Assembly: GCF_000807255.1 (NCBI RefSeq)
Contig: NZ_CP009268.1
Location: 400,384-464,383 of the forward strand
Direction of reading: 5' to 3'
Source of the DNA: Clostridium pasteurianum DSM 525 = ATCC 6013
GTDB taxonomy: Bacteria > Bacillota > Clostridia > Clostridiales > Clostridiaceae
DNA length: 64,000 nucleotides
Shown one piece after another: positions 13,612 to 37,368 of the stretch; positions within the stretch are counted from its first letter, which is position 1, and each line of letters opens with the position of its first letter. Under the pieces are notes generated by a model. It did not search any database. It was not told the DNA's origin and saw only the letters and a program-made list of their open reading frames with translations. The translations under genes were made by a program, and so were the position numbers.

Positions 13612-13745
13612 TGTTTAATATATCCTCCTATAGTTAACAATTATTTTTGTATATTTAAATGCTTTACAATATGTGGTTTTTTCAATTATATAATGTCATA
13701 TTATAGATAAAATTATTCAGATATGATTAAAGTTTTTAATTATAA

Positions 13746-14132
13746 ATTTCTATAGAAATAATTTGCTTATCTAACATTCGGAATAACCATTTACACCAAG
13801 CAACTACTAAGATAGTGAAAACCAAGCCATCAAGAGTAGTTATGGAAACACTTAATATTAAAGGTATGATTAAGAATAAGCATTTATCCAAAGCTATAGC
13901 ACAGCAAGGGTTATATGAGTTTAAAAGACAGCTTCAATACAAATGTGAATTTTATGGAATTAAATTTATTGAAGCTGATAAATGGTATCCATCATCAAAG
14001 ACTTGTAGTGAGTGTGGACATAAAAAGACTAAATTATCACTATCAGAAAGAACTTATATCTGTGAAGAATGTGGAGCAGTAATTGATAGAGATTTAAATG
14101 CTTCAATTAATTTAAGCAGATATTCAGCATAA
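13746..14132 (+). pseudogene. tnpB: 5'-truncated IS200/IS605-family TnpB (OrfB) remnant, C-terminal RuvC-II/zinc-finger/RuvC-III region only
   Basis: VVMETLNIKGM plus CSECGHKK...CEECGAVIDRDLNASINL equals the TnpB C-terminus; there is no upstream TnpB body and a stop in frame at 13743. Confidence 0.7.
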
Positions 14133-14240
14133 CTACATGAACAGTTATGTTTGAGGTGTAGGATTCGTTGTATCCGAAGTTAAGCCCTTGGAGTGTCATA
14201 TCAAACGAAAGTAGTGTATTCTTTTAGAATTACAAAATCG
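14133..14240 (+). mobile_element. Probable IS605-family right-end (RE) segment downstream of the tnpB remnant
   Basis: By position only; contains short hairpins (ttcg..cgaa) but I could not resolve the RE stem-loop. Confidence 0.3.
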
Positions 14241-14656
14241 GACACATTGAACGGGGAATTAAACAAGCTTTATGGAGTTCTATAAAGTTTTGGCAACGGT
14301 ATAGTACTATTCTTTTGGTTGTTAGGATTTATATTTAGATTTGGAGGATTTTTAATTCATATGCTGCTTATAGTAGCAGTGTTAGTATTTATAGTGAATG
14401 TAATTACAGGAAGAAAAAATAAGGGATAATTATGTATAATAATATTTTTTAATAATCTATGTGGATTTCTATAATGAAATTTACATAGGTTATTTTTGTT
14501 TATATTATATAGATATCCAATTTGGTTATTAAATATTAATAAGCATAAATAATCTGAATAGTCTAGCCTAAAAAATTAAAGCTTACTTATAGTTGACAAA
14601 TCAACTTATAGTTGTATAGTATTACTTATAGTGAATTTTAAGTGGGAGAATTGTAT

Positions 14657-16084: not shown

Positions 16085-16177
16085 ATATATTAAATTATAA
16101 ATAAATACAATTTTATAAATAGAGTTAAGAGTATTATAAGAAAATAGTCTTAATTAATAAAAATATATTAAAAAAAT

Positions 16178-16210
16178 GTCTGCTTAGCGCAGATGTTTTT
16201 TATATTATCA
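16178..16210 (+). terminator. Rho-independent terminator
   Basis: tctgc-ttagc-gcaga followed by TGTTTTTT. Confidence 0.45.
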
Positions 16211-16423
16211 TAAAATAGATAAATTTAATAACAATATGAAATAAAAGTCATAAATTTAATATTAATAGAATAATTTTAATGAAAAGTTTAATTTACCTCA
16301 AAAAAATATTAAAACTAGCGTATGTATATAGTGTCTTCAAAAGACGATCTGTTATAAATATGGCAATAGCAACATTAAAGTATATATTTATAATAAAAAA
16401 TTATTTTAGGGGGAAAATAATTT

Positions 16424-17920
16424 ATGATTAAATCAAAAATTATGAAATTTATTCTAGGAACTACTTTTGCTGCAACGTTGCTTGTAGCCGTACCGGGAGG
16501 AAAGTTGGCCTTTGCTAGTAATGCTGATTATAACAATGATTATGGCTTTTCTCACATAACTCGATTTGATATGAATAAAATTCCAGCACAACATGGAAAT
16601 GCACAGTTCGAAGTGCCTAAATTTGATGCATCAACTATTAAAAATATTCCGTCAGCAAAGGGATATGATAAAAATGGTAATTTAATTGATCTAGATGTAT
16701 GGGATAGTTGGCCGCTTCAAAATTCTGATGGAACAGTAGCAAACTATAAGGGATATAATATTGTCTTTGCACTAGCTGGAGATCCTAAAAATGGAAATGA
16801 TACTTCTATATATTTATTCTATCAAAAAATAGGACAAACTTCTATTGACAGCTGGAAAAATGCTGGAAGAGTATTTAAGGATAGTGATAAATTTGCTAAT
16901 CCAAATGATCCGCATCTTAAATATCAAACTCAAGAATGGTCAGGTTCTGCTACATTAACTTCTGATGGTAAAATTAGACTATTCTATACTGATTTTTCTG
17001 GTGCACCTGAAGATGGTGGAACTGGTGATGGAAATCAGGTTATAACAACTGCTCAAGTTAATATGTCTAAAGTAGATAGAGATACACTTAAAGTAGATGG
17101 TGTAGAAGATCATAAATCTATTTTTGATGGTGGAGATGGTAAATTATATCAAAATGTTCAACAGTTCAGAGATGCAGGAATGTATCTTTCACCGGACAAT
17201 CATACACTAAGAGATCCACACTATGTAGAAGATAAAGGACATAAATATCTTGTTTTTGAAGCTAACACAGGAAGTGATGACGGTTATCAAGGTGAAAACT
17301 CTTTATACAACAGAGCTTATTATGGCGGCAGTAAGGCTTTCTTCCAGTCAGATAAAAATGCATTATTAAATAGTGATAAAAAAGAAACTGCTTCTTATGC
17401 TAACGGTGCGCTAGGTATTATTGAATTAAATGATAATTATACATTAAAAAAAGTTATGAAACCATTAATTGCATCAAATACAGTAACAGATGAAATTGAA
17501 CGTGCTAACATATTTAAACTTAATGGCAAGTGGTATTTATTCACAGATAGCAGAGGATCTAAAATGACTATCAATGGTATAGGAAATAAAGATGTATACA
17601 TGTTGGGTTATGTTTCTAATTCTATAAATGGACCTTTTAAACCACTAAATGACAGTGGACTTGTATTACATATGGATCTTGATCCTGCTGATCTGACATT
17701 TACTTATTCACATTTCGCTATACCTCAGACTAAGGGTAATAATGTTGTAATTACAAGTTATATGACTAACAGAGGTTTTTATGCAGATCACAAAGCTACT
17801 TTTGCTCCAAGTTTCTTACTTAATATTAAGGGAGATAAGACATCAGTTGTACCAAACAGTATTCTTGAACAAGGTCAGCTTACAATTGATAATGTGAAAA
17901 AACATAATGATAAAAGATAG
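16424..17920 (+). CDS. sacB: Levansucrase (glycoside hydrolase family 68), secreted
   Basis: Signal peptide, then the DVWDSWPLQNSDGTVA catalytic-nucleophile motif and the rest of the GH68 signature (RDPH, DEIER). Confidence 0.9.
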   Translation: MIKSKIMKFILGTTFAATLLVAVPGGKLAFASNADYNNDYGFSHITRFDMNKIPAQHGNAQFEVPKFDASTIKNIPSAKGYDKNGNLIDLDVWDSWPLQNSDGTVANYKGYNIVFALAGDPKNGNDTSIYLFYQKIGQTSIDSWKNAGRVFKDSDKFANPNDPHLKYQTQEWSGSATLTSDGKIRLFYTDFSGAPEDGGTGDGNQVITTAQVNMSKVDRDTLKVDGVEDHKSIFDGGDGKLYQNVQQFRDAGMYLSPDNHTLRDPHYVEDKGHKYLVFEANTGSDDGYQGENSLYNRAYYGGSKAFFQSDKNALLNSDKKETASYANGALGIIELNDNYTLKKVMKPLIASNTVTDEIERANIFKLNGKWYLFTDSRGSKMTINGIGNKDVYMLGYVSNSINGPFKPLNDSGLVLHMDLDPADLTFTYSHFAIPQTKGNNVVITSYMTNRGFYADHKATFAPSFLLNIKGDKTSVVPNSILEQGQLTIDNVKKHNDKR

Positions 17921-18363
17921 TAGTCAAAATATTATAAAGAGATAATTGACAATTAATTAGTATTAAAAAATTTATAAAGAGGTTCTTTGAAATGTGTTAA
18001 TATACATTAAAAGCACCTCTTTTTTTCTTTTTTTAAGAATATTATATAATTTATATTATAGATAAGTATATAGATATCCAAATTCATAATTAAATGTTGA
18101 TACTCATAAATAGCCTGAGTAACTTAATATAAAAAATCTAAATTTATATTTCAGGTTGTATATCTATAGATAAATTTTTATTATACAATCTATAGAAAAT
18201 TTATTATATGTCTACTCATCAGAGTCAAAATAAATGTATAATTTCATATTACAGAAAGAGAATATAAATGAATAATTTCACTTGAAGTTTTATACTTATA
18301 CTAAGTTTGAATGGATTGTTTAAAGAATAGTCAGTGAATGAAGACATAGAGTGGAGGGATTAT

Positions 18364-19926
18364 ATGACAAAAAGAAAAATTGTACTATTATGTATTTTTA
18401 TTAGTATTTTTTTTGCAATAATAATTGGATTTTTATTTTTTTATAGTAATACAGATAAAGAACCAAAGAAAAAAGTAATTGATGAAAAACCAAACTATAG
18501 AGCTGTATATCATTTTACAACTCCTGACAAGTGGAAAAATGATCCCCAAAAGCCCATATTTTTTGATGGGAAATATCATTACTATTATCTCTATAATGGT
18601 GAATATCCAAAGGGCAATGGTACAGAGTGGCGTCATGCTACATCAGAAGATTTAGTGCATTGGAGTGATGAAGGCGTAGCAATTCCTAAATTTACTAATA
18701 ATAATGGAGATGTGTGGTCAGGATCAGTGGTAGTGGATAGTGAAAATACAGCGGGTTTTGGAAAAGATGCTGTGGTGGCTATTTTAACTCAGCCTTCTGG
18801 AAAGGATGGTGCTCAACAGCAGCATCTATGGTACAGTACTGATAAGGGAAAGACCTTTAAGTCCTATAGTGATAATCCAGTTATGCCAAATCCAGGAGTA
18901 AAGGACTTTAGAGATCCTAAAATTATCTGGAACTCTAAAAGTAATAAGTGGACTATACTATTAGCAGAAGGTAACAAGATAGGTTTTTATGAATCGGATA
19001 ATCTTAAAGATTGGCAATATACTGGAGGATTTTTTACAAAAGATATAGGTATTGTAGAATGTCCAGATCTATTTATGATGAAGGCTGAGGATGGAGCTTA
19101 TAAATGGGTTATGGGAGCAAGTGCCAATGGAAAAAGTGTAGGAAAACCGAATACCTATGCCTATTGGACCGGTGATTTCAATGGAAAAGAGTTTATACCA
19201 GATGAAAGTGAACCTCAATGGCTGGACTATGGATTTGATTGGTATGCAGGTGTAACTTTTGAAAGCGGCAATATCAGTGAGAGTTTTATAAAACGTTATG
19301 CATTAGCTTGGATGAATAACTGGGATTATGCTAATAATACTCCTACTACTAAAGAGAACTTTAATGGCATAGATTCAATTGTAAGAGAGATAAGTCTTAA
19401 AAAACAAGATGATAGGTACAGTCTTTTTTCGCAGCCTGTTGAAACTTTGAATGATATTGTAAAATCCACTGAACATTTAAATAGGGTTGAAGTTACGGGA
19501 ACAAAGACATTAGAATTCACGGGAGAATCCTATGAGCTTGATGCAGATATAAGCTGGGAGGATGCTGAAAATGTAGGATTGAGGCTTAGAGAATCGGAGG
19601 ATAAAAGCCGTCATATTGATGTGGGAATTTTTGTTGATGGTAAATATTCTTATGTGAACAGAGGATTTACATCACATCCAGATGCTGCTAATAAATATAT
19701 TGAAAGCAGAGCACCATTTGACACCAGTAAAAAGAAAGTCCATCTTAAAATTATTGTGGATAAAACCAGCATAGAAGTATTTGTAGATGATGGAAAGGTC
19801 ACTTATTCCAATGAGGCATTTCCTGATTTAAAGGATAAGGGTATAAGTCTTTATTCTATTGGGGGAAAAGCTGTTTTTGAAAATATTCAAATTAAACATT
19901 TTGATTCAATTAATGAGAAAGATTAG
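18364..19926 (+). CDS. Glycoside hydrolase family 32 (levanase / endolevanase, LevB-like) with an N-terminal membrane anchor
   Basis: GH32 motifs WKNDPQKP (WMNDPNG-like), FRDPK and ECPDLF; RBS GGAGGGA before the ATG at 18364. Confidence 0.85.
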   Translation: MTKRKIVLLCIFISIFFAIIIGFLFFYSNTDKEPKKKVIDEKPNYRAVYHFTTPDKWKNDPQKPIFFDGKYHYYYLYNGEYPKGNGTEWRHATSEDLVHWSDEGVAIPKFTNNNGDVWSGSVVVDSENTAGFGKDAVVAILTQPSGKDGAQQQHLWYSTDKGKTFKSYSDNPVMPNPGVKDFRDPKIIWNSKSNKWTILLAEGNKIGFYESDNLKDWQYTGGFFTKDIGIVECPDLFMMKAEDGAYKWVMGASANGKSVGKPNTYAYWTGDFNGKEFIPDESEPQWLDYGFDWYAGVTFESGNISESFIKRYALAWMNNWDYANNTPTTKENFNGIDSIVREISLKKQDDRYSLFSQPVETLNDIVKSTEHLNRVEVTGTKTLEFTGESYELDADISWEDAENVGLRLRESEDKSRHIDVGIFVDGKYSYVNRGFTSHPDAANKYIESRAPFDTSKKKVHLKIIVDKTSIEVFVDDGKVTYSNEAFPDLKDKGISLYSIGGKAVFENIQIKHFDSINEKD

Positions 19927-19944
19927 AAATAATATTTAGTAAAA

Positions 19945-19980
19945 GAGAGATAAATTCATTTCAGTTTATCTCTTTTTCGC
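19945..19980 (+). terminator. Rho-independent terminator after the GH32 gene
   Basis: agagataaa-ttcatttcag-tttatctct followed by TTTTCGC. Confidence 0.5.
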
Positions 19981-20097
19981 TATAAAGTAATTATGATTTA
20001 GATAATAAAATGGATTTTCAATAAAAACTAAATATATATTTTATTTAATATAATTTTTATAGTGTAAAATATTAGCTAAATAATGTGTAATGTACAC

Positions 20098-20126
20098 TTG
20101 ACATGACTTCAAAGCATTGATATATT
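20098..20126 (+). promoter_or_regulatory. Sigma-A-type promoter (TTGACA-17-TATATT) flanked by the TGTAATGT/ACATTACA inverted repeat
   Basis: Canonical -35/-10 hexamers with 17-bp spacing, upstream of the XRE gene. Confidence 0.5.
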
Positions 20127-20163
20127 AATACATGTAAGGTAAACATTACAGAGGTGATGAGTT

Positions 20164-20400
20164 TTGAAGAATAGATTAAGAGAATTTAGGGAAGCCTTTG
20201 GTCTAACCCAAGAACAATTAGGAAAACTTATAGGAGCATCAAGACAGGCAATTAACTCTATAGAAACGGAAAAGTATGAACCTTCCATATGGCTGGCCTA
20301 TGATATATCTAAAATTTTTCATAAAACCATAGAAGATATTTTTCTCTTTGAGGAAAGTGAAAGAAAATCAAGAGCACAGCAGAGTAGAGGAGTGGTTTAG
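20164..20400 (+). CDS. XRE-family (Cro/CI-type) HTH transcriptional regulator
   Basis: The LTQEQLGKLIGASRQAINSIE helix-turn-helix. Confidence 0.75.
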   Translation: MKNRLREFREAFGLTQEQLGKLIGASRQAINSIETEKYEPSIWLAYDISKIFHKTIEDIFLFEESERKSRAQQSRGVV

Positions 20401-20859
20401 ATGGCATTAAGACAGATTAGAATTTTTGGAGATGAAATACTTAGAAAAAAGAGCAGAAAAGTTGAAGTGCTAGATGATAAGATAAGACAGATTTTAGATG
20501 ATATGACTGATACTCTTCACAATTCAGAAAATGGAGCAGCAATAGCAGCACCACAGGTTGGAATATTAAAGAGATTAGTTGTAATAGATATGGGACAAGG
20601 ACTTATGAAATTAGTTAATCCGAAGATAATAGATAAGGAAGGTCAGCAGGAAGTTATAGAGGGATGTCTTAGTATCCCGAATAAATGGGGAAAACTTATG
20701 AGACCTGCAAAGGTAACAGTACAAGCTCTAAATGAAAATGGAGATAAGATTACACTAACAGGTACAGGTGATATGGCAAAATGTTTCTGCCATGAAATAG
20801 ATCATCTGGATGGCAAATTGTTTACGGATTTTGTTACTGAGTATATAGATGTGGAATGA
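20401..20859 (+). CDS. def: Peptide deformylase
   Basis: Def motifs GAAIAAPQVG, EGCLSIP and HEIDHLDG; the start ATG abuts the XRE stop codon (TAGATG). Confidence 0.85.
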   Translation: MALRQIRIFGDEILRKKSRKVEVLDDKIRQILDDMTDTLHNSENGAAIAAPQVGILKRLVVIDMGQGLMKLVNPKIIDKEGQQEVIEGCLSIPNKWGKLMRPAKVTVQALNENGDKITLTGTGDMAKCFCHEIDHLDGKLFTDFVTEYIDVE

Positions 20860-20911
20860 TATAAACAGAGTGTGATGGGAGTATTACGGCTGGTAGTCAT
20901 CAGATAAAGAT

Positions 20912-20957
20912 GAGGAACGTGTATAGATTTATTTAAATGAATCTATACACGTTCCTT
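20912..20957 (+). terminator. Rho-independent terminator (16-bp stem)
   Basis: ggaacgtgtatagatt-tatttaaatg-aatctatacacgttcc followed by TTTTTAG. Confidence 0.6.
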
Positions 20958-20959
20958 TT

Positions 20960-21195
20960 TAGTAAATGTAAGTTGTTTTTCACCTGCCTAACTTGGCGTA
21001 AGTCTCCAACGCACTCTGCTTGCACTCTGTACAGCCCTCACATAAAATCAAAAATAAGATTTTAGTTCTCTGCTTTTCTTCAAGTGGGAGTTCGACGCCA
21101 AGTAAGGCATGCATTTGCAGTTCTAAAATTCAGATGGGGTAAAAGAATCCCCATCTGAATTTTAGAACTTGCTTCAATGTTTTATTATTATTATG
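20960..21195 (+). repeat. GC-rich structured intergenic repeat, copy 1 (about 235 bp; imperfect terminal inverted repeats; 3' 20-bp hairpin)
   Basis: About 85-90% identical to 47045..47288; terminal IR CTAACTTGGCGTAAGTCTCC / GGGAGTTCGACGCCAAGTAAG; internal hairpin gttctaaaattcagatgggg-taaaagaa-tccccatctgaattttagaac. Confidence 0.7.
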
Positions 21196-21289
21196 ACATT
21201 TGTCATAGTTAAATTATTCCTCTTGTTACTACTATATATTGTTTATTTATCTTATTATATAAATATAAGTAAAAACAGGGGGAATTAAG

Positions 21290-22222
21290 ATGATACTTGA
21301 AGTAAAAAAGCTTGTTAAGAGATATGATGATTTTATAGCTGTAGATAATATAAATCTGTCTATTGAAGAAGGTGAAATATTTGGATTACTGGGACCTAAT
21401 GGTGCAGGTAAAACTACAACCATTAATACACTCATTGGTATGACAAAAATTGATAGTGGAGAAATTCAAATATTTGGTATGGATATGAAAAAATATGAAA
21501 GAGACATTAAAAAGTTTATTGGAATTGTACCTCAGGATATAGCTGTTTATGAAGATTTAACTGCCTACGAAAATCTTTGCTATTTTGGAAGGCTCTATGG
21601 TTTAAGAGGAAAGGAATTACAGTATAGAGTTGATAGAGCACTTGAATTTACGGGACTGCTGGATAGAAAAAAGGATTATCCTAAAAAGTTTTCTGGGGGA
21701 ATGAAGAGGAGGTTAAATATTGCCTGTGCTATAGTGCATCATCCAAAGCTTATTATTATGGATGAACCCACCGTTGGAATAGATCCTCAGTCAAGAAATC
21801 ATATACTTCAGTCTATCAAAAAACTTAATGAAATGGGGGCAACAATAATATATACTTCACACTACATGGAGGAAGTTGAAGAACTATGTACAAAAATAGT
21901 TATAATTGATAAAGGCAGAGTAATAGCAAAAGGTACTAAAGAGGAACTGAAGGATCTTGTAGAAATTAATGAAAAAATAGATATGGAGCTTTCATCTGTT
22001 AATTATACTATAGTTGATAATATAAAAAATCTGCATGAAGTAACGGATTGCAGTATAAATGGAAATAGATTAACAGTTATATCTAAAAAACAAAGTAACA
22101 TCGTTGGGAAAATAATAAATATAGTTTTAGCTGCAAATTCAGAAATAATATCATTAAATGTAAATAAACCTACTCTTGAAAGTGTATTTTTAACTCTAAC
22201 TGGCAGAAAGCTTAGGGAATGA
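21290..22222 (+). CDS. ABC transporter ATP-binding protein (ABC-2 exporter type)
   Basis: Walker A GPNGAGKTT, signature FSGGMKRRL, Walker B IIMDEPT. Confidence 0.85.
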   Translation: MILEVKKLVKRYDDFIAVDNINLSIEEGEIFGLLGPNGAGKTTTINTLIGMTKIDSGEIQIFGMDMKKYERDIKKFIGIVPQDIAVYEDLTAYENLCYFGRLYGLRGKELQYRVDRALEFTGLLDRKKDYPKKFSGGMKRRLNIACAIVHHPKLIIMDEPTVGIDPQSRNHILQSIKKLNEMGATIIYTSHYMEEVEELCTKIVIIDKGRVIAKGTKEELKDLVEINEKIDMELSSVNYTIVDNIKNLHEVTDCSINGNRLTVISKKQSNIVGKIINIVLAANSEIISLNVNKPTLESVFLTLTGRKLRE

Positions 22223-25970: not shown

Positions 25971-26593
25971 CTATAATACATATAAGTTATTTATTGCCTT
26001 CTCAATATATCTTTGGCTTTCCACATATTATGGGAGGGGGCATAGATGAAACGGGTATTTACTGTAGTATATTTGGAAATAAAAAAGCTCCTACTATGCT
26101 TGGGGGAAAGGATGGAAAAATAACATCACGTATAAAACGTATAGCGAAAACAATGGAGCAGGCTAATTTAAATCCACAAATATCAACACAAATATTACCT
26201 TGGATATTAACTCATTATGCTGAAGCAGCTGGCTTGCTAGGTGGGGTGATGAAAGCTGACTCTGGAAAAGCTTTTGGGGAAGGTACTGAAGTTATGAAGT
26301 ACACGCTTCTTGCAATTAGGGAAGGACTAGACGTTTGTAAAGCTCGTGGAATAAATGTAGGTAGTATAAAACCACAAAATTTATACTATCTACCTAAATT
26401 CATTATTTATAGTCTCACTATATGGATATGCGTCAATAACAGATTGAAAATCTGTGGTATTTCAGTAGCACCTATTAACTTTAAGCCAATAGAAGAAGCA
26501 TTTCTCTCAATTATAGAGGGATGTCCTACCGGACTCCGTGTTGACGCATTAAAACCAAATTCTCTTGGATCTTTATTAATAAGAGCATCTTGA
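25967..26593 (+). CDS. Hypothetical ORF overlapping the IS630 remnant; possibly spurious or a gene fragment
   Basis: No RBS-quality start and no recognised motifs; overlaps the antisense transposase fragment. Confidence 0.2.
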   Translation: MTIIHISYLLPSQYIFGFPHIMGGGIDETGIYCSIFGNKKAPTMLGGKDGKITSRIKRIAKTMEQANLNPQISTQILPWILTHYAEAAGLLGGVMKADSGKAFGEGTEVMKYTLLAIREGLDVCKARGINVGSIKPQNLYYLPKFIIYSLTIWICVNNRLKICGISVAPINFKPIEEAFLSIIEGCPTGLRVDALKPNSLGSLLIRAS

Positions 26594-26910
26594 ATATAAT
26601 AAAGCATTTCATCAGTGAAGGGACTAACAGAACCTCCACGTTGATCATTAATTGCTTTAAGACCAAATTCGTCCCATTTGTGTATATAGCTCAAAACAGA
26701 AGCCCTAGAGACCCCTACAATTTCCTCTATTTTAGAGATATGTACACCTAAATAGCTCATAATAATTGTTTTTAAAAAGTTTTGCGAATACTTATTTGTT
26801 GAGTTTTTTTCAAAAGTTCTTAATTGATCCAGTGAAATATCTTTTAAATTGGTAACTTTTGTAGCCGTTCTTCCCATAATAATTTTCTCCTTAAGTTTTG
26901 CTATCTTCAT
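26407..26910 (-). pseudogene. IS630-family transposase N-terminal (HTH) fragment, truncated
   Basis: An HTH_Tnp_IS630-like N-terminal region (LDQLRTFEKNS..., VSRASVLSYIHKWDEFGLKAINDQRGG, FGFNASTRS), then loss of frame before the DDE domain. Confidence 0.6.
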
Positions 26911-28923: not shown

Positions 28924-29039
28924 GAATGTTAATTATACACAATGCTACTATGTGTAATTGGATAAATAAGAGCAAAGTCTTTAATAAGCTTTGTTCTTAT
29001 TTTCTCTTCAGGATTGTTCATTTTTGTTTTCAATTGAGT

Positions 29040-29212
29040 TTTTGGTACCAATTCTAATAAATCTAAATTTAGTGGCAGTGCGACCAATGGGTGTAGCTAT
29101 GCCATTTTTTAGTTATAGTGGAACATCTACAATAATTAATTCAGATTTGGTAGGGGTTATATGCAGTATCTATGGAAGGAAAAATTTAAGTAAATCTTTA
29201 GTAGAGAATTAA
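29040..29212 (+). pseudogene. C-terminal fragment of an FtsW/RodA/SpoVE-family gene
   Basis: The conserved RodA/FtsW C-terminal motif reads MGVAMPFFSYSGTSTI...GVICSIYGRK (normally LPFISYGGSS...), with no upstream body. Confidence 0.55.
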
Positions 29213-29545: not shown

Positions 29546-31204
29546 CTAAAATACTCTCAATATAGCTTCTATTTGAACTCTATTACTACTATTTAATTTA
29601 TTATCTACCTCCATATATAATTTCCTAATATTATCAATTTGATCTTTTTTAAGAGAAATGAAACTCCCATTAAACTTATTGATCCATGATTCTATTTCAT
29701 CATTAATTATTTGAACATAAGTATTACTTGATATTTTTAACATTTTTAATAACTGCATTATTGAAATCCATTTAGGATAGTAATTTATTACTTTTATTAG
29801 ATTTATATAAACATGAGTTTCATATACTTCAGACTCAAACAATTGAAATATCATATTTTCATCAAAGGATAGAATATCATTCTCTAAACATTTTGTTGCA
29901 TTATTTGATTCACTTATATTATCTGAGATTAGCTTATCAAGAACATATTGTGTTCCTTCTTTCGGATTCAACATATATATAGTAATTAATGCTATTTTTC
30001 TAACCTTAACATTTTCGTCATTAAGATATTTGAAAATATACTTGACATCCTCCTGTGCTCCCGTTTCTCTAATTCCAAATAGTACTCCATATAAATTATA
30101 ATTACTCTTATCTATTTCTCTTAAATACATTTCTCTAAAGTCCGCAATCCCCTTTTTCTTAAGTTTATATCTGGCATAATCTCTCACGGTATACGATTTA
30201 TCATATAAAAATGGTATAAGTGCTTTATGAAGATCTAGAACATTGATTTTTTCTAATATATCAATTGCTGCTACTCTGCATATTACATTTTTATTTTGTC
30301 TCAATACTTTAAAAATGACCCATGAATTATATCTATTCATAATTTCTTCAATTTTTTCAATTGCAGTTCTAAGGATAATAATATCTTTACTTTTTAGTCC
30401 CATATTAATAACTAAATTATCTGTTGTATTAATTCTTAGCAAATATTTAAAAAGCTTTCTTTTAACTAATATTTCTTCACTATTTTTATAAATATTAAGC
30501 AGTAAATCATAATTTCTCTGATCAATAATAAAATCTTCTAGTTTAAATAATATACCTGAATAATCGCTACGCCCCCAACTATTCATCCTATCTATAATTG
30601 GTAAACATTCGATAATATCTTTTAAATAATCATCTCTTATATACTTAATTAATTCTTTGTTAGCAAGATTTCTAACCTCTTTAACCCAATCATTAACCCT
30701 TATCATTATAAATTTGATTTTAAAACCATCTTCAAATTCTGATAATTTCTTTAATGCATCTTCTCGTACATACCCGTTTGGATGCAAAGTTAAAACTGAT
30801 AATATATAAATTGCTTCTTTTCCAAAACAATTTGTTAAATCAAATCTATACTTATTGGCTTCTCTATAATTTTTTTCAATTTCACAATCAATAGAATAAT
30901 AATAGTAACTACTTCTAAAATGTTCTGCAAAGAACAACAATTCCTTAATGGTCAAATCATCTATTATTCTCTTTAAGTGCTTTAATGCCTTTGAAGCAAC
31001 AACAAAATCTTTATCAAAACATAAAACAAGTAAATATTTCATAAGTCTAATATTATCAACATCTTGAATTTTGTCTAACTCTTCAACAAATATATTTCTT
31101 CTCTTTCTAGATAGTAGTATCAATCTTTTTTTATCATAATTTAATAATTTTTTTAGGGACTCATATGTCTTTGAATCCATATCTTTATAAGGTTCCTTAT
31201 TCAT
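29546..31204 (-). CDS. HEAT / PBS-lyase-repeat protein of unknown function (about 550 aa)
   Basis: At least 5 repeats of the xxxVRxxAxxxL type (HPNGYVREDALKKL, DWVKEVRNLANKEL, NKNVICRVAAIDIL, DKSYTVRDYARYKL, DENVKVRKIALITI); RBS AAGGAGG before the second ATG. Confidence 0.6.
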   Translation of the reverse strand: MNKEPYKDMDSKTYESLKKLLNYDKKRLILLSRKRRNIFVEELDKIQDVDNIRLMKYLLVLCFDKDFVVASKALKHLKRIIDDLTIKELLFFAEHFRSSYYYYSIDCEIEKNYREANKYRFDLTNCFGKEAIYILSVLTLHPNGYVREDALKKLSEFEDGFKIKFIMIRVNDWVKEVRNLANKELIKYIRDDYLKDIIECLPIIDRMNSWGRSDYSGILFKLEDFIIDQRNYDLLLNIYKNSEEILVKRKLFKYLLRINTTDNLVINMGLKSKDIIILRTAIEKIEEIMNRYNSWVIFKVLRQNKNVICRVAAIDILEKINVLDLHKALIPFLYDKSYTVRDYARYKLKKKGIADFREMYLREIDKSNYNLYGVLFGIRETGAQEDVKYIFKYLNDENVKVRKIALITIYMLNPKEGTQYVLDKLISDNISESNNATKCLENDILSFDENMIFQLFESEVYETHVYINLIKVINYYPKWISIMQLLKMLKISSNTYVQIINDEIESWINKFNGSFISLKKDQIDNIRKLYMEVDNKLNSSNRVQIEAILRVF

Positions 31205-31447
31205 ATTTACCTCCTTACCAGCTAAAATTTCCATATATAAGAATAACTAATAAATAATTTACTCTCTTGTTTATTAACATTTTTTCTAATCTAACTTTTG
31301 TATTTCATTGCTGTACAGAGTATAAGTAGAGAAGTAAAATCTTGGCTTTGTGTAAATTGCTATACATAGTACTATGTGAGTATTAGCGAATAATCATAGG
31401 GGAAAGAAATTTATAGATAGAAAATAAAGACTTATGATTTTAAGCCT

Positions 31448-32554
31448 TTACTTCTGGCACAACAGCTCATTTAATTGTCCTAAAAGATTACTCCCACCTG
31501 AAATTGATATATTGCCAACCTTATCACATATCTTTTCCAAGTACTCCATTTCTTTAAGTTTGTAAAGTGTTTCATTTTCATCCAAAAGTTTTGCCGTATT
31601 TAATAGGCTTCTTGTAGATGCAACCTCTTCACGCCTTGATATCACATTGGCTTGTGCTTTCTTTTCTGCAATTAAAACAGTATTCATTATATCTCTGATT
31701 TCTCCAGGCAATATGATATCCTTTATACCGGCATCAATAAATTCAACATAATATTCCCCTTGCTTTTCTTTAAGCTTTGAGAGTATAAAACCTGCAATCT
31801 CATCTTTTTGGTTTAAAAGTTCATCAAACTTAAATCTTCCAACATACTCACGAAGAACCATTTGAGAAAAAATATAAATTTGTGTTTTATAATCTTTGAT
31901 TTCAGATATAAGCTTAACAGCATCTATTATTTTAAAACTGCATACAAAATTGATACGTAAAGAAACTCTATCTGTAGTTAGAATTTCTTGACCTGAAATA
32001 TCCAGTTGTTGAATTCTTACGTCAATAAGTTCAAAGGTCACTTTAATTTTGCTATTCCAAAAGAAATAAATACCACTTGAAAGTTCTCTTTGAAATTTGC
32101 TATCAAAGTATACAACTGCTTTTTCGCCTTCAGAAACCTCAATTTTAATATAGAGCTTTTCAGTAATATATTTAAATATATTTTTATCAATCTCCTTCTT
32201 AACTTCTGGATTTGATATATCAATAACATCAAAGGTATGCTTCTTTAAAATATTCCAAAAAGCATATTCGCCACTTGTAAGAGTGTCTGTTATTCTTCCA
32301 TCTATATAATGTATGGCTACTTTATTGTCAGGTACATTTATAACTGTTACACTTTTCTCAAAATTTTCATCCTTTGTAAGCACATTAATATCAATTCCTG
32401 CTGTATTAACAACCTGACTGCTGTCTATACTTACTTTTGCTATTGTATAACCCATCCATGATAAATAGGAGTGCTTACCTGAATTCAACATTTTTATAAA
32501 TTTACCATACTTAAATAAGTATCCTCTTTCGTTTTCATTAATAATAATCTTCAT
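31448..32554 (-). CDS. SPFH/band-7 (stomatin/HflC-like) domain protein lacking an obvious transmembrane anchor
   Basis: The C-terminal half matches the SPFH core (TTDRVSLRINFVCSFKIID..., LREYVGRFKFDELL, IKDIILPGEIRDIMN, AEKKAQANVI); RBS AAAGAGGT before MKIIINE. Confidence 0.6.
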   Translation of the reverse strand: MKIIINENERGYLFKYGKFIKMLNSGKHSYLSWMGYTIAKVSIDSSQVVNTAGIDINVLTKDENFEKSVTVINVPDNKVAIHYIDGRITDTLTSGEYAFWNILKKHTFDVIDISNPEVKKEIDKNIFKYITEKLYIKIEVSEGEKAVVYFDSKFQRELSSGIYFFWNSKIKVTFELIDVRIQQLDISGQEILTTDRVSLRINFVCSFKIIDAVKLISEIKDYKTQIYIFSQMVLREYVGRFKFDELLNQKDEIAGFILSKLKEKQGEYYVEFIDAGIKDIILPGEIRDIMNTVLIAEKKAQANVISRREEVASTRSLLNTAKLLDENETLYKLKEMEYLEKICDKVGNISISGGSNLLGQLNELLCQK

Positions 32555-32921
32555 AATATTAACCTCTTTTACTAATAAAATTTTGATATAAGCTGTAATG
32601 CTCACATAATCTCTGCGGAATTTTAGTTAAATCATATAAAAAATATCAAGTCAAAGCTGCTGACCATATTTTTTATATGCCTAGCTCATATTAATTTACC
32701 TCGGCTCCTTCACATTTCAGTAAAGTCATGGAAATAAAAAATACAAAGCGGTATCCCTAAAATTTCAAGGCATTAATTACATCATTATAGTAGTGAATTC
32801 TTATGTCTACCTTTAATGTATACTATAATTGAGCACTACAGCTTAACACCATTTAATCTAAGACTTGGAAGGTCTTATTTTGAGAAGGTTTTAAACCTAA
32901 ACATAAAACATCGTCTGATTA

Positions 32922-32971
32922 CTCTACCAACTGAGATAACTGTATAGTCACAGTAGGGGATTCGAACCCCT
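32922..32971 (-). ncRNA. Permuted tRNA-like element (T-arm, closed acceptor-like hairpin, D-arm); candidate Y-RNA (YrlA-like) tRNA-mimic module or tRNA remnant
   Basis: The minus strand reads AGGGG-TTCGAAT-CCCCT a CTGTGACTATACAG tTATCTCAGTTGGTAGAG: a canonical T-loop and D-loop with an intervening 5-bp hairpin, but no anticodon arm in tRNA order. Confidence 0.45.
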
Positions 32972-33105
32972 GACACATCAGGTAATGACAATTATTTCGG
33001 AATACTAAGAAGTTAATACCTCTAGCACCGTAAAGCCTTAAAAAGCTTTTACATAGAAATAATATGCCAAATATATAAAAAGCTTTCGCCTATATATTTT
33101 AATAA

Positions 33106-34338
33106 CTATCCTTTAACAACGCCAACTGTTTTGAGTTTTTTTAATGGATCAACTAAATCAGTTTGATTAAGCATAACTTCATCTATGTTCTTATATGCAA
33201 AACGGCTTTCCTCAGCCACGTCATTTTTTTTATTTTTACCTAATATTATTCCTGATTTTTTAAGATCATTCATAACTTCTTCTGTAGTAAAATTTTTCAT
33301 TGCAGCCTTTCTTGAATATCTTCTTCCTGCACCATGAGAGGAGGAACAAAAGCTTTCTTTATTTCCCTTTCCCTGTACAATATAACTGTAGGAGCCCATA
33401 GCTCCAGGAATAACAGCTAGTTCACCCTGTTTTGCTCTTGTTGCACCCTTTCTATGAACCCAAACATTTTTGCAATAATGATTTTCAAGACTTGCATAAT
33501 TATGATGACAGTTAATTTCCAATGTATATTCAATATTAAGATCAGTATATTTCTCCAGCCATTTTTCTATAATAATTGTAACGGCTGTTATCATTTTTTC
33601 CCTGTTTTCATAAGCAAAATCAAGAGCTAAATTCATCCAATCTATATATCTTTTACCTTCATCAGTATCTACAGGCAAAAAAGCCAATCTGTATTCCAAT
33701 GGTACAGCTGAATGCCATTTTTCATTGAGTTCTCTTGCCATTTTATTAAAATGATCACATACTCTTCTCCCAAAATTACGACTTCCTGAATGAAGCATTA
33801 TACCTAAATTTCCTTCTTCATCTTCTTGAAGTTCAATAAAGTGATTTCCACCTCCAAGAGTTCCTATTTGAAAGTATCCATCTTCAATCTGATCCAAAAG
33901 TTCAACATCCTTTTCATATTTATTCATTTCATTTTTGGCTTTATCAAGTGTATAGGAGCTTTGTATTGTCTTGTGATGTTTAAAGGAAACAGGTATATTT
34001 CTTAATATGTCTCCAATAATTCCCTGAATCAATGATCCATTTGGAGTTTTAATATCTTTTATATACTGTACCTTTATATTAGTTCCTACAAAAGCCATGC
34101 CACAACCTATATCTACACCAACAGCATTTGGAATAATAACTCCTTCAGCTGCAATGACTCCACCTATGGGCATTCCCTTTCCAGTATGTGTATCCGGCAT
34201 AAGTGATACCCACTTATGTATAAAGGGAAGTTGAGATAGATTGTATGCTTGTTCAAGGCAGCTTTCCTCTATACTAGTCTCACCTTGAAGCCATATTTTA
34301 ATTGGATGTTTTGTTTTTTTACTGCAAATGACAAACAT
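33106..34338 (-). CDS. rtcB: RtcB-family RNA 3'-phosphate/2',3'-cyclic-phosphate ligase
   Basis: Motifs MPDTHTGKG, AVGVDIGCGMAF, GGGNHFIEL, HSGSRNFG, CHHNYA, HRKGATRA, PGAMGSYSY and SSSHGAGR; RBS AAGGAG 8 nt before the ATG at 34338. Confidence 0.9.
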   Translation of the reverse strand: MFVICSKKTKHPIKIWLQGETSIEESCLEQAYNLSQLPFIHKWVSLMPDTHTGKGMPIGGVIAAEGVIIPNAVGVDIGCGMAFVGTNIKVQYIKDIKTPNGSLIQGIIGDILRNIPVSFKHHKTIQSSYTLDKAKNEMNKYEKDVELLDQIEDGYFQIGTLGGGNHFIELQEDEEGNLGIMLHSGSRNFGRRVCDHFNKMARELNEKWHSAVPLEYRLAFLPVDTDEGKRYIDWMNLALDFAYENREKMITAVTIIIEKWLEKYTDLNIEYTLEINCHHNYASLENHYCKNVWVHRKGATRAKQGELAVIPGAMGSYSYIVQGKGNKESFCSSSHGAGRRYSRKAAMKNFTTEEVMNDLKKSGIILGKNKKNDVAEESRFAYKNIDEVMLNQTDLVDPLKKLKTVGVVKG

Positions 34339-34668
34339 ATAGGTCACTCCTTGTTTATAATCTAAGATAAGCTATATAAATAGAGTTTTAATATCCTTTT
34401 GTGATACTTAACATCGTTATCCATGAACATAATCTCTCTTTATCCCCACAAATATGGGAGTATTAGATATGGTAGTCATCGGATAAAATTATTAATTGTT
34501 GAAGTTGAAGTGGCTTATCTATGTTTTAATATTAACATCACAAATAATAGTTTCCATTTAAAAAAAGTTGCGAACTTACTTTATTAATTGATTTTAAATT
34601 TATAAATTGATAGAATAAAATTTAATTGAGTATAATATCTTATACCTAAACACAGGAAGGTCAATTAT

Positions 34669-35910
34669 ATGAAGAATTTTTCAGAACTAATTAAAAACTT
34701 TGATAAAATTAGAGATTATATGAGAGATTTTTTTGTATATGGCTTTAAATCCAGAAGTAATTTTACTCAAAAAAGTCTCCGCACCTATGATAATGAGAAA
34801 AGAAGAATTGAAAGTTATCTAGGTGATTGCATAAAATATAACAATATGAATGGAGAAAAAAATACTTTTATCTCCTTAGACAGCTCCAGTGTAACTGAAA
34901 ATCCCCTTTATTCTGTTTGGAAGGCAAAGAGTTTCACAAACAATGATATAATGCTTCATTTCTATTTACTGGATATATTAACATATGAATCTTTACTTGA
35001 TATAGAACAATTGTCAGATAAAATTTGTGAGAGATATAGTACATGCTTTGACACTCAAACAGTAAGAAATAAAGTTAAAGAATCTGTAAAAGAGGGAATT
35101 TTAAACTCCTGCAAGCAGGGGAGAAAATTATACTATTCTCTATCAAGGGATTTTCTTAAAACATTAGTGAATAACTATGATGATATAATAGATGCTTTAA
35201 AATACTATCAGGCAATAGCACCTTTTGGTGTTATAGGCAGCTATATTCTTGACAATGAAGAAAATAAAAATGATATTTTCCACTTTAAACATCATTTTGT
35301 TGTCCATACACTAGAAGATAAAGTTCTACTTGAGATTTTAAAAGCCATAAATGAAAAAAGAGAGATAAATTTTATTAATAAAAGTCCACGTAGTGAATAT
35401 ATACTAAAAGTTTCTGGTGTACCCCTTAAAATATTTGTAAGTAATCAAACTGGCAGGCGTTACGTTAATATATACAATAAGAAAAGAAAGCGTTTTGTAA
35501 ATTACAGATTGGATTACATAAAGTCCGTTAATATATTGGATATATGTATAGAGTATGATTTTTTTAAGCAGAAACTGGAGAAAAATTTGGATAAATGCTG
35601 GGGAGTATCCTTTGGCAATAGCATTAGAGGTAAGACATTTTATGCTAAGTTTTATGTTGATGAGGAAAGGGAACTGTATATACTTGATCGCATAAAGAAA
35701 GAAGGTCGAAAGGGTACACTTAAAAAAGTTGATAAAAATATCTATATTTATTCAAAGGAAATCTTTGATACAAATGAAATAATGTCCTGGATAAAGAGTT
35801 TTACGGGAAGAATTATATCTATTGAAAGCGGAGACAAATTTGTAGATGAAAGATTTTATAGCGATATGAAAAAGATGAAAGAAATGTATTTAGGTGGTGA
35901 TACTGACTGA
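34669..35910 (+). CDS. WYL-domain transcriptional regulator (PafB/PafC-like; N-terminal wHTH, WYL, WCX)
   Basis: WYL-like block PLKIFVSNQTGRRYVNIYNKKRKRFVNYRLDYIKSV and a C-terminal WCX-like block. Confidence 0.6.
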   Translation: MKNFSELIKNFDKIRDYMRDFFVYGFKSRSNFTQKSLRTYDNEKRRIESYLGDCIKYNNMNGEKNTFISLDSSSVTENPLYSVWKAKSFTNNDIMLHFYLLDILTYESLLDIEQLSDKICERYSTCFDTQTVRNKVKESVKEGILNSCKQGRKLYYSLSRDFLKTLVNNYDDIIDALKYYQAIAPFGVIGSYILDNEENKNDIFHFKHHFVVHTLEDKVLLEILKAINEKREINFINKSPRSEYILKVSGVPLKIFVSNQTGRRYVNIYNKKRKRFVNYRLDYIKSVNILDICIEYDFFKQKLEKNLDKCWGVSFGNSIRGKTFYAKFYVDEERELYILDRIKKEGRKGTLKKVDKNIYIYSKEIFDTNEIMSWIKSFTGRIISIESGDKFVDERFYSDMKKMKEMYLGGDTD

Positions 35911-36884
35911 TGGAACTATTTTCTGAAATTTACAATTGTTATTATAATGTAATAACAAAAATTTTAAATACCTGTAGTAACACTCCTATTTCCAAAGAGG
36001 ATATAAGCAAAATTATTAAGGATAATGCTTTCTGTGAAAGTGCTTTTTATATATTTCCAAAACTTATAGATGGGGATTGGAATTTGATTACACAGGATAA
36101 AGAAAAATTTGTATCAAAATTAAAGGGAACCATTAAAAGGCCTGTAACACTTTTGGAAAAAGCCTGGTTAAAATCACTAATTCAAGATAAAAGAATATCA
36201 TTATTTTTAAAGGATGAGCAAATTAGAGTTTTAGATGAATATCTATCTGAAATTGAACCTCTGTTTAATGTAAATGACTTTTACAACTACGATACTTTTT
36301 CAGATGGTGATGATTATGAGAATCCTGAATATATACGTAATTTTCGATCCATATTATCCGCTTTTAAAAGTAAACAAGCTGTAACAATATCCTTTGAAAG
36401 CAGTAAGGGTAATCGTATCACAGGAAATTATATCCCTGTAAAAATAGAGTATTCAAATAAAAATGATAAATTTAGAGTTCACACTTTTAGAATATACCAT
36501 GGGAAAATTAGAAATACTGAAATAATAAATATAGGAAGAGTTAAAAGTGTACAGGCCTCTAAGGAAAGTTTTAATTTTAGTCTAAATATTGATATTTATG
36601 AAAAAATCAATAAATGCAAAGAACCTGTTGTAATAGAAATATCTGATGAACGTAATGCATTGGAGAGGTGTATGCTAAATTTTGCAAGTTTTCAAAAACA
36701 TACAGAATACCATAAAGATACTCAAAAGTATATAACTTATATTTATTATGATATGAAGGATGAAACTGAACTATTAATACGGATACTTTCCTTTGGTCCT
36801 GTAATAAAAGTGTTAGGTCCTGATAGATTTTTAAATATTTTAAAGAAGAGAATAAAAAGACAGGTAGAGTTGATGGAAATTTAG
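35910..36884 (+). CDS. WYL-domain protein, a tandem paralog of the upstream regulator (PafC-like)
   Basis: WYL-like block AVTISFESSKGNRITGNYIPVKIEYSNKNDKFRVHTFRIYHGKIRNTEIINIGRVKSV; WCX-like C-terminus LIRILSFGPVIKVLGPDRF; ATG overlaps the previous TGA. Confidence 0.55.
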   Translation: MELFSEIYNCYYNVITKILNTCSNTPISKEDISKIIKDNAFCESAFYIFPKLIDGDWNLITQDKEKFVSKLKGTIKRPVTLLEKAWLKSLIQDKRISLFLKDEQIRVLDEYLSEIEPLFNVNDFYNYDTFSDGDDYENPEYIRNFRSILSAFKSKQAVTISFESSKGNRITGNYIPVKIEYSNKNDKFRVHTFRIYHGKIRNTEIINIGRVKSVQASKESFNFSLNIDIYEKINKCKEPVVIEISDERNALERCMLNFASFQKHTEYHKDTQKYITYIYYDMKDETELLIRILSFGPVIKVLGPDRFLNILKKRIKRQVELMEI

Positions 36885-36951: not shown

Positions 36952-37368
36952 ATGAAAAAATTTATAGTATTGATTTTATCAATGACTATGTTTATGATGT
37001 TGTTATCAGCTTGTGGATTCAAACAGAATCTATCAAAAAGTGGAGAGTTTAAAGCTGATGAATTTATACAGATGATAAAAAGTGATAAAATTGAAATTAA
37101 GTCAATTGATAGTTCTTCTGTTATTTCTACAGTAACGGATCAAAAGTATATAGATCAATTTGTAAAAAACTTAAAGATTCAGCAGTGGCAAATGACAAGT
37201 CTGCCAGATAATTCAGAAGTTCAATATGAATATGTTTTAAATAATGGCAAAGCCAATATTATAACTTTTAAGGATATACCTTATGTACAATTAGAGATTA
37301 AAGGATTTAACTTTACTTTTAAAGTGCCGGAAGATGTGGCAAATTATTTGAATGCTGTAAAGAAATAA
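36952..37368 (+). CDS. Hypothetical lipoprotein
   Basis: Signal peptide with lipobox LLSAC. Confidence 0.5.
   Translation: MKKFIVLILSMTMFMMLLSACGFKQNLSKSGEFKADEFIQMIKSDKIEIKSIDSSSVISTVTDQKYIDQFVKNLKIQQWQMTSLPDNSEVQYEYVLNNGKANIITFKDIPYVQLEIKGFNFTFKVPEDVANYLNAVKK

Follow-up and report, generated by a model that had tools for sequence, protein, structure and literature searches.

A likely RtcB-centered RNA-repair locus in Clostridium pasteurianum with a Band-7 protein, a tRNA-like RNA, and an accessory HEAT-repeat protein

Apart from its enzymes, bacterial RNA repair is poorly understood. We analyzed a 64,000-nucleotide (nt) stretch of the genome of Clostridium pasteurianum DSM 525 = ATCC 6013 (contig NZ_CP009268.1, positions 400,384 to 464,383 of the forward strand), referred to below as the window. 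It contains a locus for the RNA ligase RtcB, a tRNA-like RNA, an SPFH (Band-7) protein, and a HEAT-repeat protein, next to the genes of two putative WYL-domain regulators. The original prediction, made from the letters of this DNA, stated that no described system with such a composition was known to its author. This statement did not hold. In certain bacteria, RtcB is encoded beside a protein of the Band-7 type and a predicted tRNA, named b7a-tRNA after its association with band 7 (10.1101/312249), and the same source credits the prediction of the Band-7/b7a-tRNA/RtcB system to Burroughs and Aravind 2016 (NAR). YrlA, a noncoding RNA, is also occasionally found beside a Band-7 protein (10.1101/312249), and an SPFH gene lies within the rtc locus of P. 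aeruginosa (PMC13086221). The window holds exactly these three components, RtcB, Band-7, and a tRNA-like RNA, adjacent to one another; beyond the system known through 10.1101/312249, it has a divergent WYL pair, a composite RNA of much greater size, and a HEAT gene. The core is already described; the apparent additions to it are the composite RNA, the pair of WYL genes, the link to HEAT, and a vault-like layout of the SPFH protein.

The Salmonella rsr-yrlBA-rtcBA operon also resembles the locus in that RtcB is encoded beside a permuted tRNA-mimic RNA and a putative scaffold gene. However, the scaffold is an SPFH protein in the window and a TROVE protein in Salmonella, the window has neither Ro60 nor RtcA, and the regulator of the Salmonella operon is RtcR (a CARF/sigma-54 activator), whereas the window has WYL proteins. 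RtcR was not seen in the window, the whole of which was not searched for it. No TROVE match was detected in the open reading frames (ORFs) of approximately 23.1-39.8 kilobases (kb), and a tblastn search of the whole window with a genuine Ro60 (from locus L030, described below) was empty. A further relative is the RtcB-PrfH ribosome rescue/repair pair (PMC9304027): one locus, L067, combines WYL1, WYL2, the RNA, SPFH, and HEAT with RtcB and a PrfH-like protein that carries an RF-1 domain. The window differs in having no PrfH, and its RtcB is 27% identical to the L067 RtcB.

The elements of the locus are as follows.

29546..31234, minus strand: HEAT-repeat protein of 562 amino acids (aa); score of 27.7 bits with Pfam HEAT (cut-off 23.5)
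31448..32605, minus strand: SPFH protein as the mechanical ORF, 385 aa from GTG; Band_7 at 1e-29, residues 156-327
31448..32554, minus strand: SPFH protein from the preferred start, 368 aa from the ATG at 32554
32745..33031, minus strand: conserved structured RNA of approximately 285 nt, with ends inferred from sequence conservation
33106..34347, minus strand: rtcB, 413 aa; PF01139 at 3e-113 over the full length; 3'-phosphate/5'-OH RNA ligase
34669..35910, plus strand: putative WYL-domain regulator 1 (WYL1), divergent from rtcB
35910..36884, plus strand: putative WYL-domain regulator 2 (WYL2), whose start overlaps the WYL1 stop codon

The four elements originally claimed (rtcB, the tRNA-like RNA, SPFH, and HEAT) are all present and co-oriented on the minus strand. 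Their separation by short gaps was only partly right: the HEAT-SPFH gap measures 213 nt, and the SPFH-rtcB gap, which contains the conserved RNA of approximately 285 nt, measures 551 nt. The length of 385 aa given for the SPFH protein needs correction. An AAAGAGG ribosome-binding site lies 8 nt upstream of the ATG at 32554, homologues cover 96% of the query, and the gene is also called at 368 aa in L163, a strain with a 97% identical HEAT protein; the true start is therefore almost certainly this ATG. The rtcB ORF likewise begins with GTG and is called from an ATG, at 410 aa, in the near-identical strain, and the GTG starts probably over-extend both SPFH (by 32555..32605) and rtcB (by 34339..34347) on the minus strand. 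The gene order of L163 (KdgT permease, WYL genes, rtcB, SPFH, HEAT, amidase) is that of the window.

We compared the SPFH neighborhood in 80 collected metagenomic loci encoding relatives of the window SPFH protein, with a fully flanked set of 16 non-duplicate loci having at least 3.5 kb on both sides. Among the latter, RtcB was found near SPFH in 12 and both WYL genes in 13. Clustering of all neighboring ORFs across the 80 loci revealed no conserved partner beyond RtcB, WYL1, and WYL2, and in the 35 loci in which WYL1 and WYL2 occurred together they were adjacent in every case. WYL1, WYL2, RtcB, the RNA, and SPFH form a core that travels together in two gene orders. In the first, to which the window belongs, WYL2-WYL1 is divergent from RtcB-RNA-SPFH; in the second, WYL1-WYL2-RNA-SPFH-RtcB lie on one strand. 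We consider it likely that the locus is an RtcB-centered RNA-repair module of the "Band-7 / tRNA-like RNA" type, with HEAT as an optional add-on. The proposal of an RNA-repair or conflict-type module was supported, and its parts include the tRNA-like RNA, the SPFH protein without an anchor, and the WYL regulators.

The window RtcB scored 379.7 bits against a cut-off of 27 and covered PF01139 profile positions 1-426 of 426; an alignment with the RtcB of P. horikoshii (1uc2/4dwq) covered it from residue 28 through the C-terminus. Its conserved motifs (MPDTHTG, GVDIGCG, GGGNHF, HSGSR, HHN, and SHGAGR) are all intact. In RtcB, these motifs serve metal binding and guanylylation, the GMP being carried by the His of HGAGR. 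Of the two regulators, WYL1 matched Pfam WYL with 23.5 bits against a cut-off of 21.8 and a PADLOC WYL model at 3e-10, together with a sub-threshold PaaX-like winged helix-turn-helix at 127-159. WYL2 matched a PADLOC WYL model at 2.8e-6 and also a Cas3c model at 3e-5. BLASTP detected no similarity between WYL1 and WYL2, and no similar solved structure was found for either.

The family to which the HEAT protein belongs is large and uncharacterized. The AlphaFold2 (AF2) model of the window protein was an all-alpha solenoid with repeats of the HEAT/PBS type and a predicted local distance difference test score (pLDDT) of 81, and residues 241-437 matched alphaRep proteins at 1e-14. Besides generic HEAT-repeat Pfam models, no Pfam, NCBIfam, or PADLOC family was matched except by two weak sub-cutoff hits, to NblB (17.7 bits against 300) and to PADLOC SP_VI (E = 0.0026 over 32 residues). 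A word-indexed protein search returned only nine relatives. The family became visible through an exhaustive profile search, which gave 1,284 clusters (50% identity) at E <= 1e-30, and a genome scan, which gave 339 loci in genomes of species from many phyla. Members are uniformly approximately 540 aa long. In 51 of them, at 20-30% identity, G154, R157, R179, D182, W183, and Y370 were invariant, and R107, N181, R222, R259, D345, R351, E390, K488, W489, and W517 were nearly so. This pattern would fit a conserved nucleic-acid-binding or partner-binding surface.

The neighborhoods of HEAT were counted in the best 80 of the 339 family loci, among which no universal neighbor was found. RNA-repair genes lay near HEAT in 9 of these loci. 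Arrays of 16-27 tRNA genes lay near it in 4 (L009, at 12973..17584; L025, at 14776..15706 and 19663..20899; L018; and L068). The arrangements linked to RNA repair were the following.

L067: WYL1-WYL2-RNA-SPFH-HEAT-PrfH-RtcB
L009: SPFH-RtcA-DUF4275-RtcB, followed by HEAT, a 3'-5' exonuclease, and an array of 27 tRNA genes
L053, L057, and L036: Hen1-HEAT-Pnkp, in which stop codons overlap start codons, at approximately 8600..14200 in each
L010: HEAT-Pnkp
L030: Ro60-DUF5677-RtcB-HEAT and, at a greater distance, Pnkp
L077: RtcB near HEAT
L136 and L150 (from the set of SPFH loci): SPFH-RtcB-HEAT, with an overlap of the start of HEAT and the stop of RtcB in L136

A relation to the Pnkp/Hen1 system is apparent from these loci, in which relatives of the window HEAT gene lie between Hen1 and Pnkp (L036, L053, and L057) or beside Pnkp (L010 and L030), although the window itself has neither Pnkp nor Hen1. 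The families of Pnkp and Hen1 were also the commonest Pfam families among the 77 co-oriented ORFs adjoining HEAT. To our knowledge, the published two-protein Pnkp/Hen1 system has no HEAT component, and we know of no published version of the three-gene Hen1-HEAT-Pnkp operon. A full-text literature search for HEAT with RtcB, Pnkp, Hen1, or Band-7 returned descriptions of Ro60 only. In the acidobacterial loci L018, L025, and L068, a TrwC relaxase gene adjoins HEAT, and L025 additionally contains an integrase and an OLD-family nuclease; these three look like integrative mobile elements with their own tRNA set. The RNA-repair-linked HEAT genes fall into separate subclades, indicating approximately 10 independent associations with RNA-repair genes or tRNA arrays. 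We estimate that chance alone would bring one single-copy gene to within 10 kb of another in far fewer than 1% of genomes; on this estimate, the enrichment of HEAT at RNA-repair loci appears real. HEAT is a facultative accessory of RNA-repair loci.

The tight SPFH-HEAT pair that had been envisaged was not recovered: HEAT was present in 2 of the 16 fully flanked SPFH loci (L136 and L150, whose HEAT proteins are 81% identical), and SPFH in 2 of the 80 HEAT loci. Linkage to rtcB, the absence of which was to have spoken against the original prediction, is strong for SPFH, for which the prediction was thus not refuted; for HEAT it is mostly lacking, but HEAT recurs at RNA-repair loci well above chance frequency, so that the refutation is half reached there. 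Alternatively, HEAT may be a passenger: a stand-alone accessory or "immunity-type" helical-repeat protein (e.g., an RNase toxin inhibitor) that lands in variable regions, has no partnership, physical or mechanistic, with RtcB, SPFH, and the RNA, and overlaps with the module solely in the broad anti-ribotoxin theme. Its neighbors are indeed mostly lineage-specific singletons, and the gap of 213 nt to SPFH in the window points the same way. The closest orthologues (64-74% identical) have no rtcB or SPFH nearby. In L003, HEAT lies inside an array of DUF1963, DUF4274, and leucine-rich repeat (LRR) genes with TcaA-like proteins; in L004, an HNH gene lies upstream; in L005, an Fe-dependent repressor and an SLH protein are found, with a JetD_C gene approximately 4 kb off. 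In L002, HEAT comes right after a gene for a "polymorphic toxin system"-type DSP-PTPase. A passenger is hard to reconcile with the position of HEAT between Hen1 and Pnkp with overlapping codons (L053 and L057) or directly after RtcB (L136), and with the approximately 10 independent associations with RNA repair or tRNA arrays across subclades. The uniform length of approximately 540 aa and the invariant Arg, Asp, Trp, and Tyr residues at 20-30% identity also disagree with it, such conservation probably being unusual for fast-evolving immunity proteins. On this evidence, we regard the passenger explanation as possible but doubtful.

Some small neighbors were recorded on the way. DUF4275 proteins adjoin RtcB in L009 (4865..5293) and L119 (1467..1952), and a DUF4274 protein (L003, 5289..5663) lies near the closest HEAT orthologue; these could be further small accessory or immunity-type partners. 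In Defluviitalea phaphyphila (L001/L005, approximately 15870..21659), a co-oriented cluster of a JetD_C-domain gene, a Pfam-less ORF, DUF6063, and a large ORF lies approximately 4 kb downstream of a 65%-identical HEAT orthologue. This cluster may be Wadjet-like, which would place the orthologue in a defence-island-like region.

The tRNA-like element between rtcB and SPFH, also part of the original prediction, is real, as indicated by a sub-threshold Rfam YrlA match, a covariance model match, and covariation. It forms one part of a larger RNA, whose elements are listed here.

32999..33030, minus strand: 5' hairpin, the base of which, CGGUGC...GGUAUNCCG, is conserved in sequence (alignment A6)
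32915..32981, minus strand: circularly permuted tRNA mimic of the YrlA type (alignment A3, model R1, Rfam)
32886..32898, minus strand: second T-arm-like hairpin AGG-UUUAAAA-CCU, degenerate, with weak support in the window
32860..32876, minus strand: anticodon-stem-loop-like hairpin AAGAC-CU UCC AA-GUCUU, with the same stem in 10 loci
32748..32757, minus strand: 3' block GGGAUACCGC (A6), a candidate protein-binding or long-range pairing site

The tRNA mimic runs through a 5-bp closing "anticodon" helix, a 5-nt variable loop, the T-arm, an acceptor hairpin, UA, the D-arm, and back into the closing helix; in the A3 structure, the acceptor hairpin is closed and has 4-6 bp. The anticodon stem, by contrast, is open. 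Most YrlAs are circularly permuted tRNAs with closed acceptor stems, and the arm order of the solved YrlA structure is anticodon stem, T stem-loop, acceptor stem, D stem-loop, anticodon stem (10.1101/312249). The arm order of the window module is identical to it. A permissive Rfam scan placed YrlA (RF02553) at 32916..32979 on the minus strand with 32.2 bits (E = 4e-4; gathering score 69), the match spanning the tRNA-like part of the Rfam model. At the gathering threshold, no YrlA was found in the 12 related SPFH loci scanned, and the L067 RNA scored 36.6 bits against the same model. The element is therefore of the YrlA type by arm order and below Rfam YrlA membership by score. ARAGORN called 0 tRNAs in the window, which is expected for a permuted element and does not count against it.

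In most of the 80 SPFH loci, a T-arm followed by a closed hairpin and a D-arm was found 100-450 nt upstream of SPFH on the same strand. Alignment A3 comprises 28 such elements from SPFH-linked loci, the window sequence among them. In it, 92.5% of the cells were paired and 18 of 20 pairs showed compensatory change, compared with approximately 45% pairing in slid controls. Selection for A3 had required pairing of the T-arm and the acceptor hairpin and not of the closing helix and the D-arm; these two regions were 80% paired with covariation in 5/5 pairs and 99% paired with covariation in 4/4 pairs, respectively. The covariance model R1, trained on the 28 SPFH-linked sequences including that of the window, gave one match in the window (32909..32987, minus strand, 71 bits, the window being a training member) and matched upstream of SPFH on the same strand in 56 of the 80 loci. 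R1 also matched elements upstream of the genuine Ro60 gene in L030, as well as junctions between neighboring tRNAs in tRNA arrays, the latter being expected because the model is a permuted tRNA.

Several related elements deserve a record. In L067 (8077..8260), two permuted tRNA modules lie in tandem, and the same was seen upstream of SPFH in L087, L090, L120, and L151; such tandems (T-arm, closed acceptor, D-arm, twice) resemble an ordinary tRNA when read across the junction, and in L151 an Rfam "tRNA" was called at 1620..1687 with 31.6 bits. L009 contains a 113-nt Rfam "tRNA" match (7652..7764, 60 bits) between RtcB and HEAT that ARAGORN did not call, and an acceptor-less tRNA-like match just upstream of SPFH (1916..1979, 52 bits, model positions 5-66), which is probably a canonical-order "b7a-tRNA". 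In L030, three R1 matches (4149..4681) upstream of Ro60 (TROVE + vWA), between tRNA-His and tRNA-Gln, resemble a Y-RNA cluster, followed by DUF5677, RtcB, HEAT, and Pnkp.

Alignment A6, built from 10 rtcB-SPFH intergenic regions, showed conservation reaching well past the tRNA module, from the 5' hairpin through the 3' block. We infer an RNA of approximately 285 nt extending from 33031 to 32745 on the minus strand. In the 5' hairpin, RNAalifold on A6 gave six inner pairs that were maintained through two-sided changes in 1-5 of the 10 sequences, and the motif was found by a regular expression in 32 of 70 SPFH upstream regions. In L088, L089, and L091, the sequences aligned with the degenerate second hairpin are clear second T-arms, GAGGUUCGAnUCCUC; in L083, the aligned sequence is GAGGGUUCAAAUCCCUC. 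The anticodon-stem-loop-like hairpin was shared by the window, L088, L089, L091, L093, L094, L105, L107, L109, and L159. Its AAGAC/GUCUU stem was invariant in these 10 loci, and its 7-nt loop CU-NNN-AA has the format of an anticodon loop. The central triplet varied (GUC, CUC, GUA twice, GUU, GAA, UAC, AAC, ACC, and UCC, the last in the window), and 4 of the 10 triplets were GUN, the anticodon class that is cleaved by colicin E5. The 3' block GGGAUACCGC was identical in 7 of the 10 A6 sequences and is enriched upstream of SPFH, with the motif in 25 of 70 upstream regions by regular expression. It carried a single substitution in L083, L126, and L141 and two in L142; L161 has CCCUCCCGC in these columns. 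A possible pairing of the 3' block with the base of the 5' hairpin has no covariation to draw on, since both are nearly invariant.

The constant position of the element relative to SPFH, always on its strand and approximately 100-450 nt upstream of its start, would also suit a role in cis, as a leader of the SPFH mRNA or a signal for its processing, such as an RNase P/Z entry site or a sensor controlling downstream translation. No terminator-like site was found between element and SPFH, and some YrlA RNAs are RNase P substrates (10.1101/312249). Against this, the structure of the element is unchanged in gene order 2, where it follows the WYL genes and not rtcB. Moreover, the architecture of the element equals that of YrlA, a trans-acting component of a ribonucleoprotein (RNP), and the conserved 5' and 3' blocks resemble the closed ends of a discrete RNA. 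We therefore think it unlikely that the element is such a cis-acting signal and not a free noncoding RNA.

The SPFH protein has no transmembrane anchor, as had been proposed, and is taken to be cytoplasmic; its N-terminal 180 residues were modeled as beta repeats. Band_7 (PF01145) matched residues 156-327 with 104.3 bits against a cut-off of 23.6 (1e-29). In the AF2 model (pLDDT 81.7, predicted template modeling score (pTM) 0.56), beta repeats at 2-42, 69-112, and 135-178 are followed by an SPFH domain (182-281) and a long helix (284-346). Foldseek aligned the model with stomatin, HflK/C, and prohibitin over 230-270 columns (E approximately 1e-14 to 1e-9) and with the major vault protein over 405-425 columns at 11-13% sequence identity, the length of the latter alignment implying that the N-terminal repeats may also have a counterpart in the major vault protein. 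The family is very large, with thousands of full-length homologues of approximately 365 aa that are conserved along their whole length. The protein does not conform to a classical membrane SPFH-NfeD pair: it has no N-terminal anchor, and its conserved partners were only RtcB, WYL1, and WYL2, in clusters that were not individually scanned for NfeD. Longer relatives of approximately 500-650 aa at 43-57% identity (P0166, P0168, P0180, P0184, and others) were also noticed, one of which, P0211, also matches PF28464.

The eukaryotic vault particle, in which vault RNA occurs together with the major vault protein and TEP1, a TROVE protein, is similar in its beta repeats, SPFH "shoulder", and long helix, and in the window the SPFH gene likewise lies beside a small structured RNA gene. 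However, the window protein has 368 aa and three repeats, whereas the major vault protein has approximately 800-860 aa and nine. The comparison is an analogy in which homology beyond the SPFH fold is not demonstrated and the cage of the window protein is hypothetical.

A mechanism for the RtcB-centered repair module can be proposed along these lines. The WYL pair, probably a heterodimer, would sense RNA damage, for example cleaved tRNA or tRNA-mimic fragments, and would then switch the operon on. SPFH may oligomerize into a ring or cage that binds the tRNA-mimic RNA, giving a scaffold RNP in the manner of the vault or of Ro60 with its Y RNA. This RNP could unite broken tRNA-like substrates with RtcB, or it could be a decoy or sensor for anticodon nucleases. 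RtcB would reseal the 2',3'-cyclic-phosphate/5'-OH breaks left by ribotoxins, and HEAT would be an adaptor, most likely binding damaged tRNA or other RNA or the repair enzymes. A more elaborate version, in which a vault-like SPFH cage is combined with a composite RNA whose strain-variable anticodon-like loop is a nuclease bait or sensor and with HEAT as a general damaged-RNA adaptor serving RtcB, Pnkp/Hen1, and Ro60-linked systems as well as mobile elements with their own tRNA sets, is speculative, and we do not expect all of its parts to hold together.

Several observations weigh against the repair-module interpretation. HEAT was absent from 14 of the 16 fully flanked SPFH loci, approximately 86% of the HEAT loci had no RNA-repair gene or tRNA array within 10 kb, and the surroundings of the three closest HEAT orthologues are unrelated or immunity-like. 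For the WYL proteins, the assignment is weak, the Pfam cut-off being barely passed, no similar solved structure being found, and the DNA-binding domain being hypothetical. The vault-like resemblance of SPFH comes from one AF2 model with a pTM of 0.56 and may not extend to the real protein. The approximately 285-nt RNA is a prediction as regards both its ends and its stability, and as of 2018 neither b7a-tRNA nor the Band-7/tRNA-like RNA/RtcB system had experimental validation (10.1101/312249).

As the PADLOC WYL models show, defence loci often contain WYL regulators. Their presence here could alternatively mean that the module is an anti-phage or abortive-infection system in which, upon infection, WYL sensors, an SPFH cage, and the RNA set off or sequester something and RtcB is the effector, e.g., ligating or inactivating RNAs. 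WYL1 and WYL2 both matched generic PADLOC WYL "associated signaling" models, and HEAT relatives lie near an OLD-family nuclease (L025), near a JetD_C gene (L005), and on mobile elements. Nevertheless, PADLOC 2.0 at E <= 0.01 returned no match for SPFH or RtcB and only the weak SP_VI match for HEAT (E = 0.0026), and a search of 2.9 million viral contigs recovered one locus each for the SPFH and HEAT families. The near absence from viral contigs and the lack of a PADLOC match for SPFH and RtcB favor repair over phage defence. The recurring partners, RtcA, Pnkp, Hen1, and PrfH, are healing and sealing enzymes, and RtcB, judged by its intact motifs, should have ligase chemistry. A defence function is thus quite improbable.

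The reading of HEAT as a divergent Ro60/TROVE homologue, a toroid that binds the YrlA-like RNA as Rsr does, agrees with the HEAT repeats of which Ro60 is built and with a YrlA-type RNA in a window in which no Ro60 gene was found, but it was rejected as largely refuted and highly improbable, because hhalign against a genuine Ro60 gave a probability of 0.1%, no TROVE or vWA match was present in Pfam, L030 encodes both Ro60 and HEAT, and HEAT is missing from most RNA-carrying loci and hence is not an obligate partner of the RNA.

With the repair module as the preferred reading, a five-part core (WYL1, WYL2, RtcB, the RNA, and SPFH) is now defined together with a working covariance model for its RNA, and this RNA appears to be much larger than a tRNA mimic, with an anticodon-like loop that has three variable central bases. 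An unnamed large HEAT family connects RtcB, Pnkp/Hen1, Ro60, and mobile elements with tRNA arrays. Should HEAT prove to be a cofactor that such systems share, RNA-damage responses would gain a common component not recognized before, and HEAT would be a useful marker for finding their loci.

The surroundings of the locus had been described as an accessory island bounded by scars of mobile elements. The ftsW/rodA fragment was confirmed at 28991..29212; the ORF at 26407..26910 gave HTH_28/HTH_29 matches only, so that its "IS630" label is tentative. The composition profile was flat, with a GC content of approximately 0.28 and no compositional island signal. A phage origin is unlikely, given one locus per family among the 2.9 million viral contigs, and a plasmid origin, for which two weak matches were obtained, is also unlikely. 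In this AT-rich DNA, a promoter and terminator scan was uninformative, with 43 sites against 37 expected and no terminators. Downstream of WYL2, a 138-aa ORF (36952..37368, plus strand) is also present in L163 and absent from the other SPFH loci; it gave weak sub-cutoff NCBIfam matches only, the best of which, to the model for the lipoprotein LytA, had E = 5e-5 and 23 bits, with the cut-off at 110. At gathering thresholds, the sole Rfam match in the window was a RAGATH-18 RNA (RF03064) at 14185..14258 on the plus strand, which scored 72.7 bits against a gathering score of 44.9 and is unrelated to the RNA-repair module.

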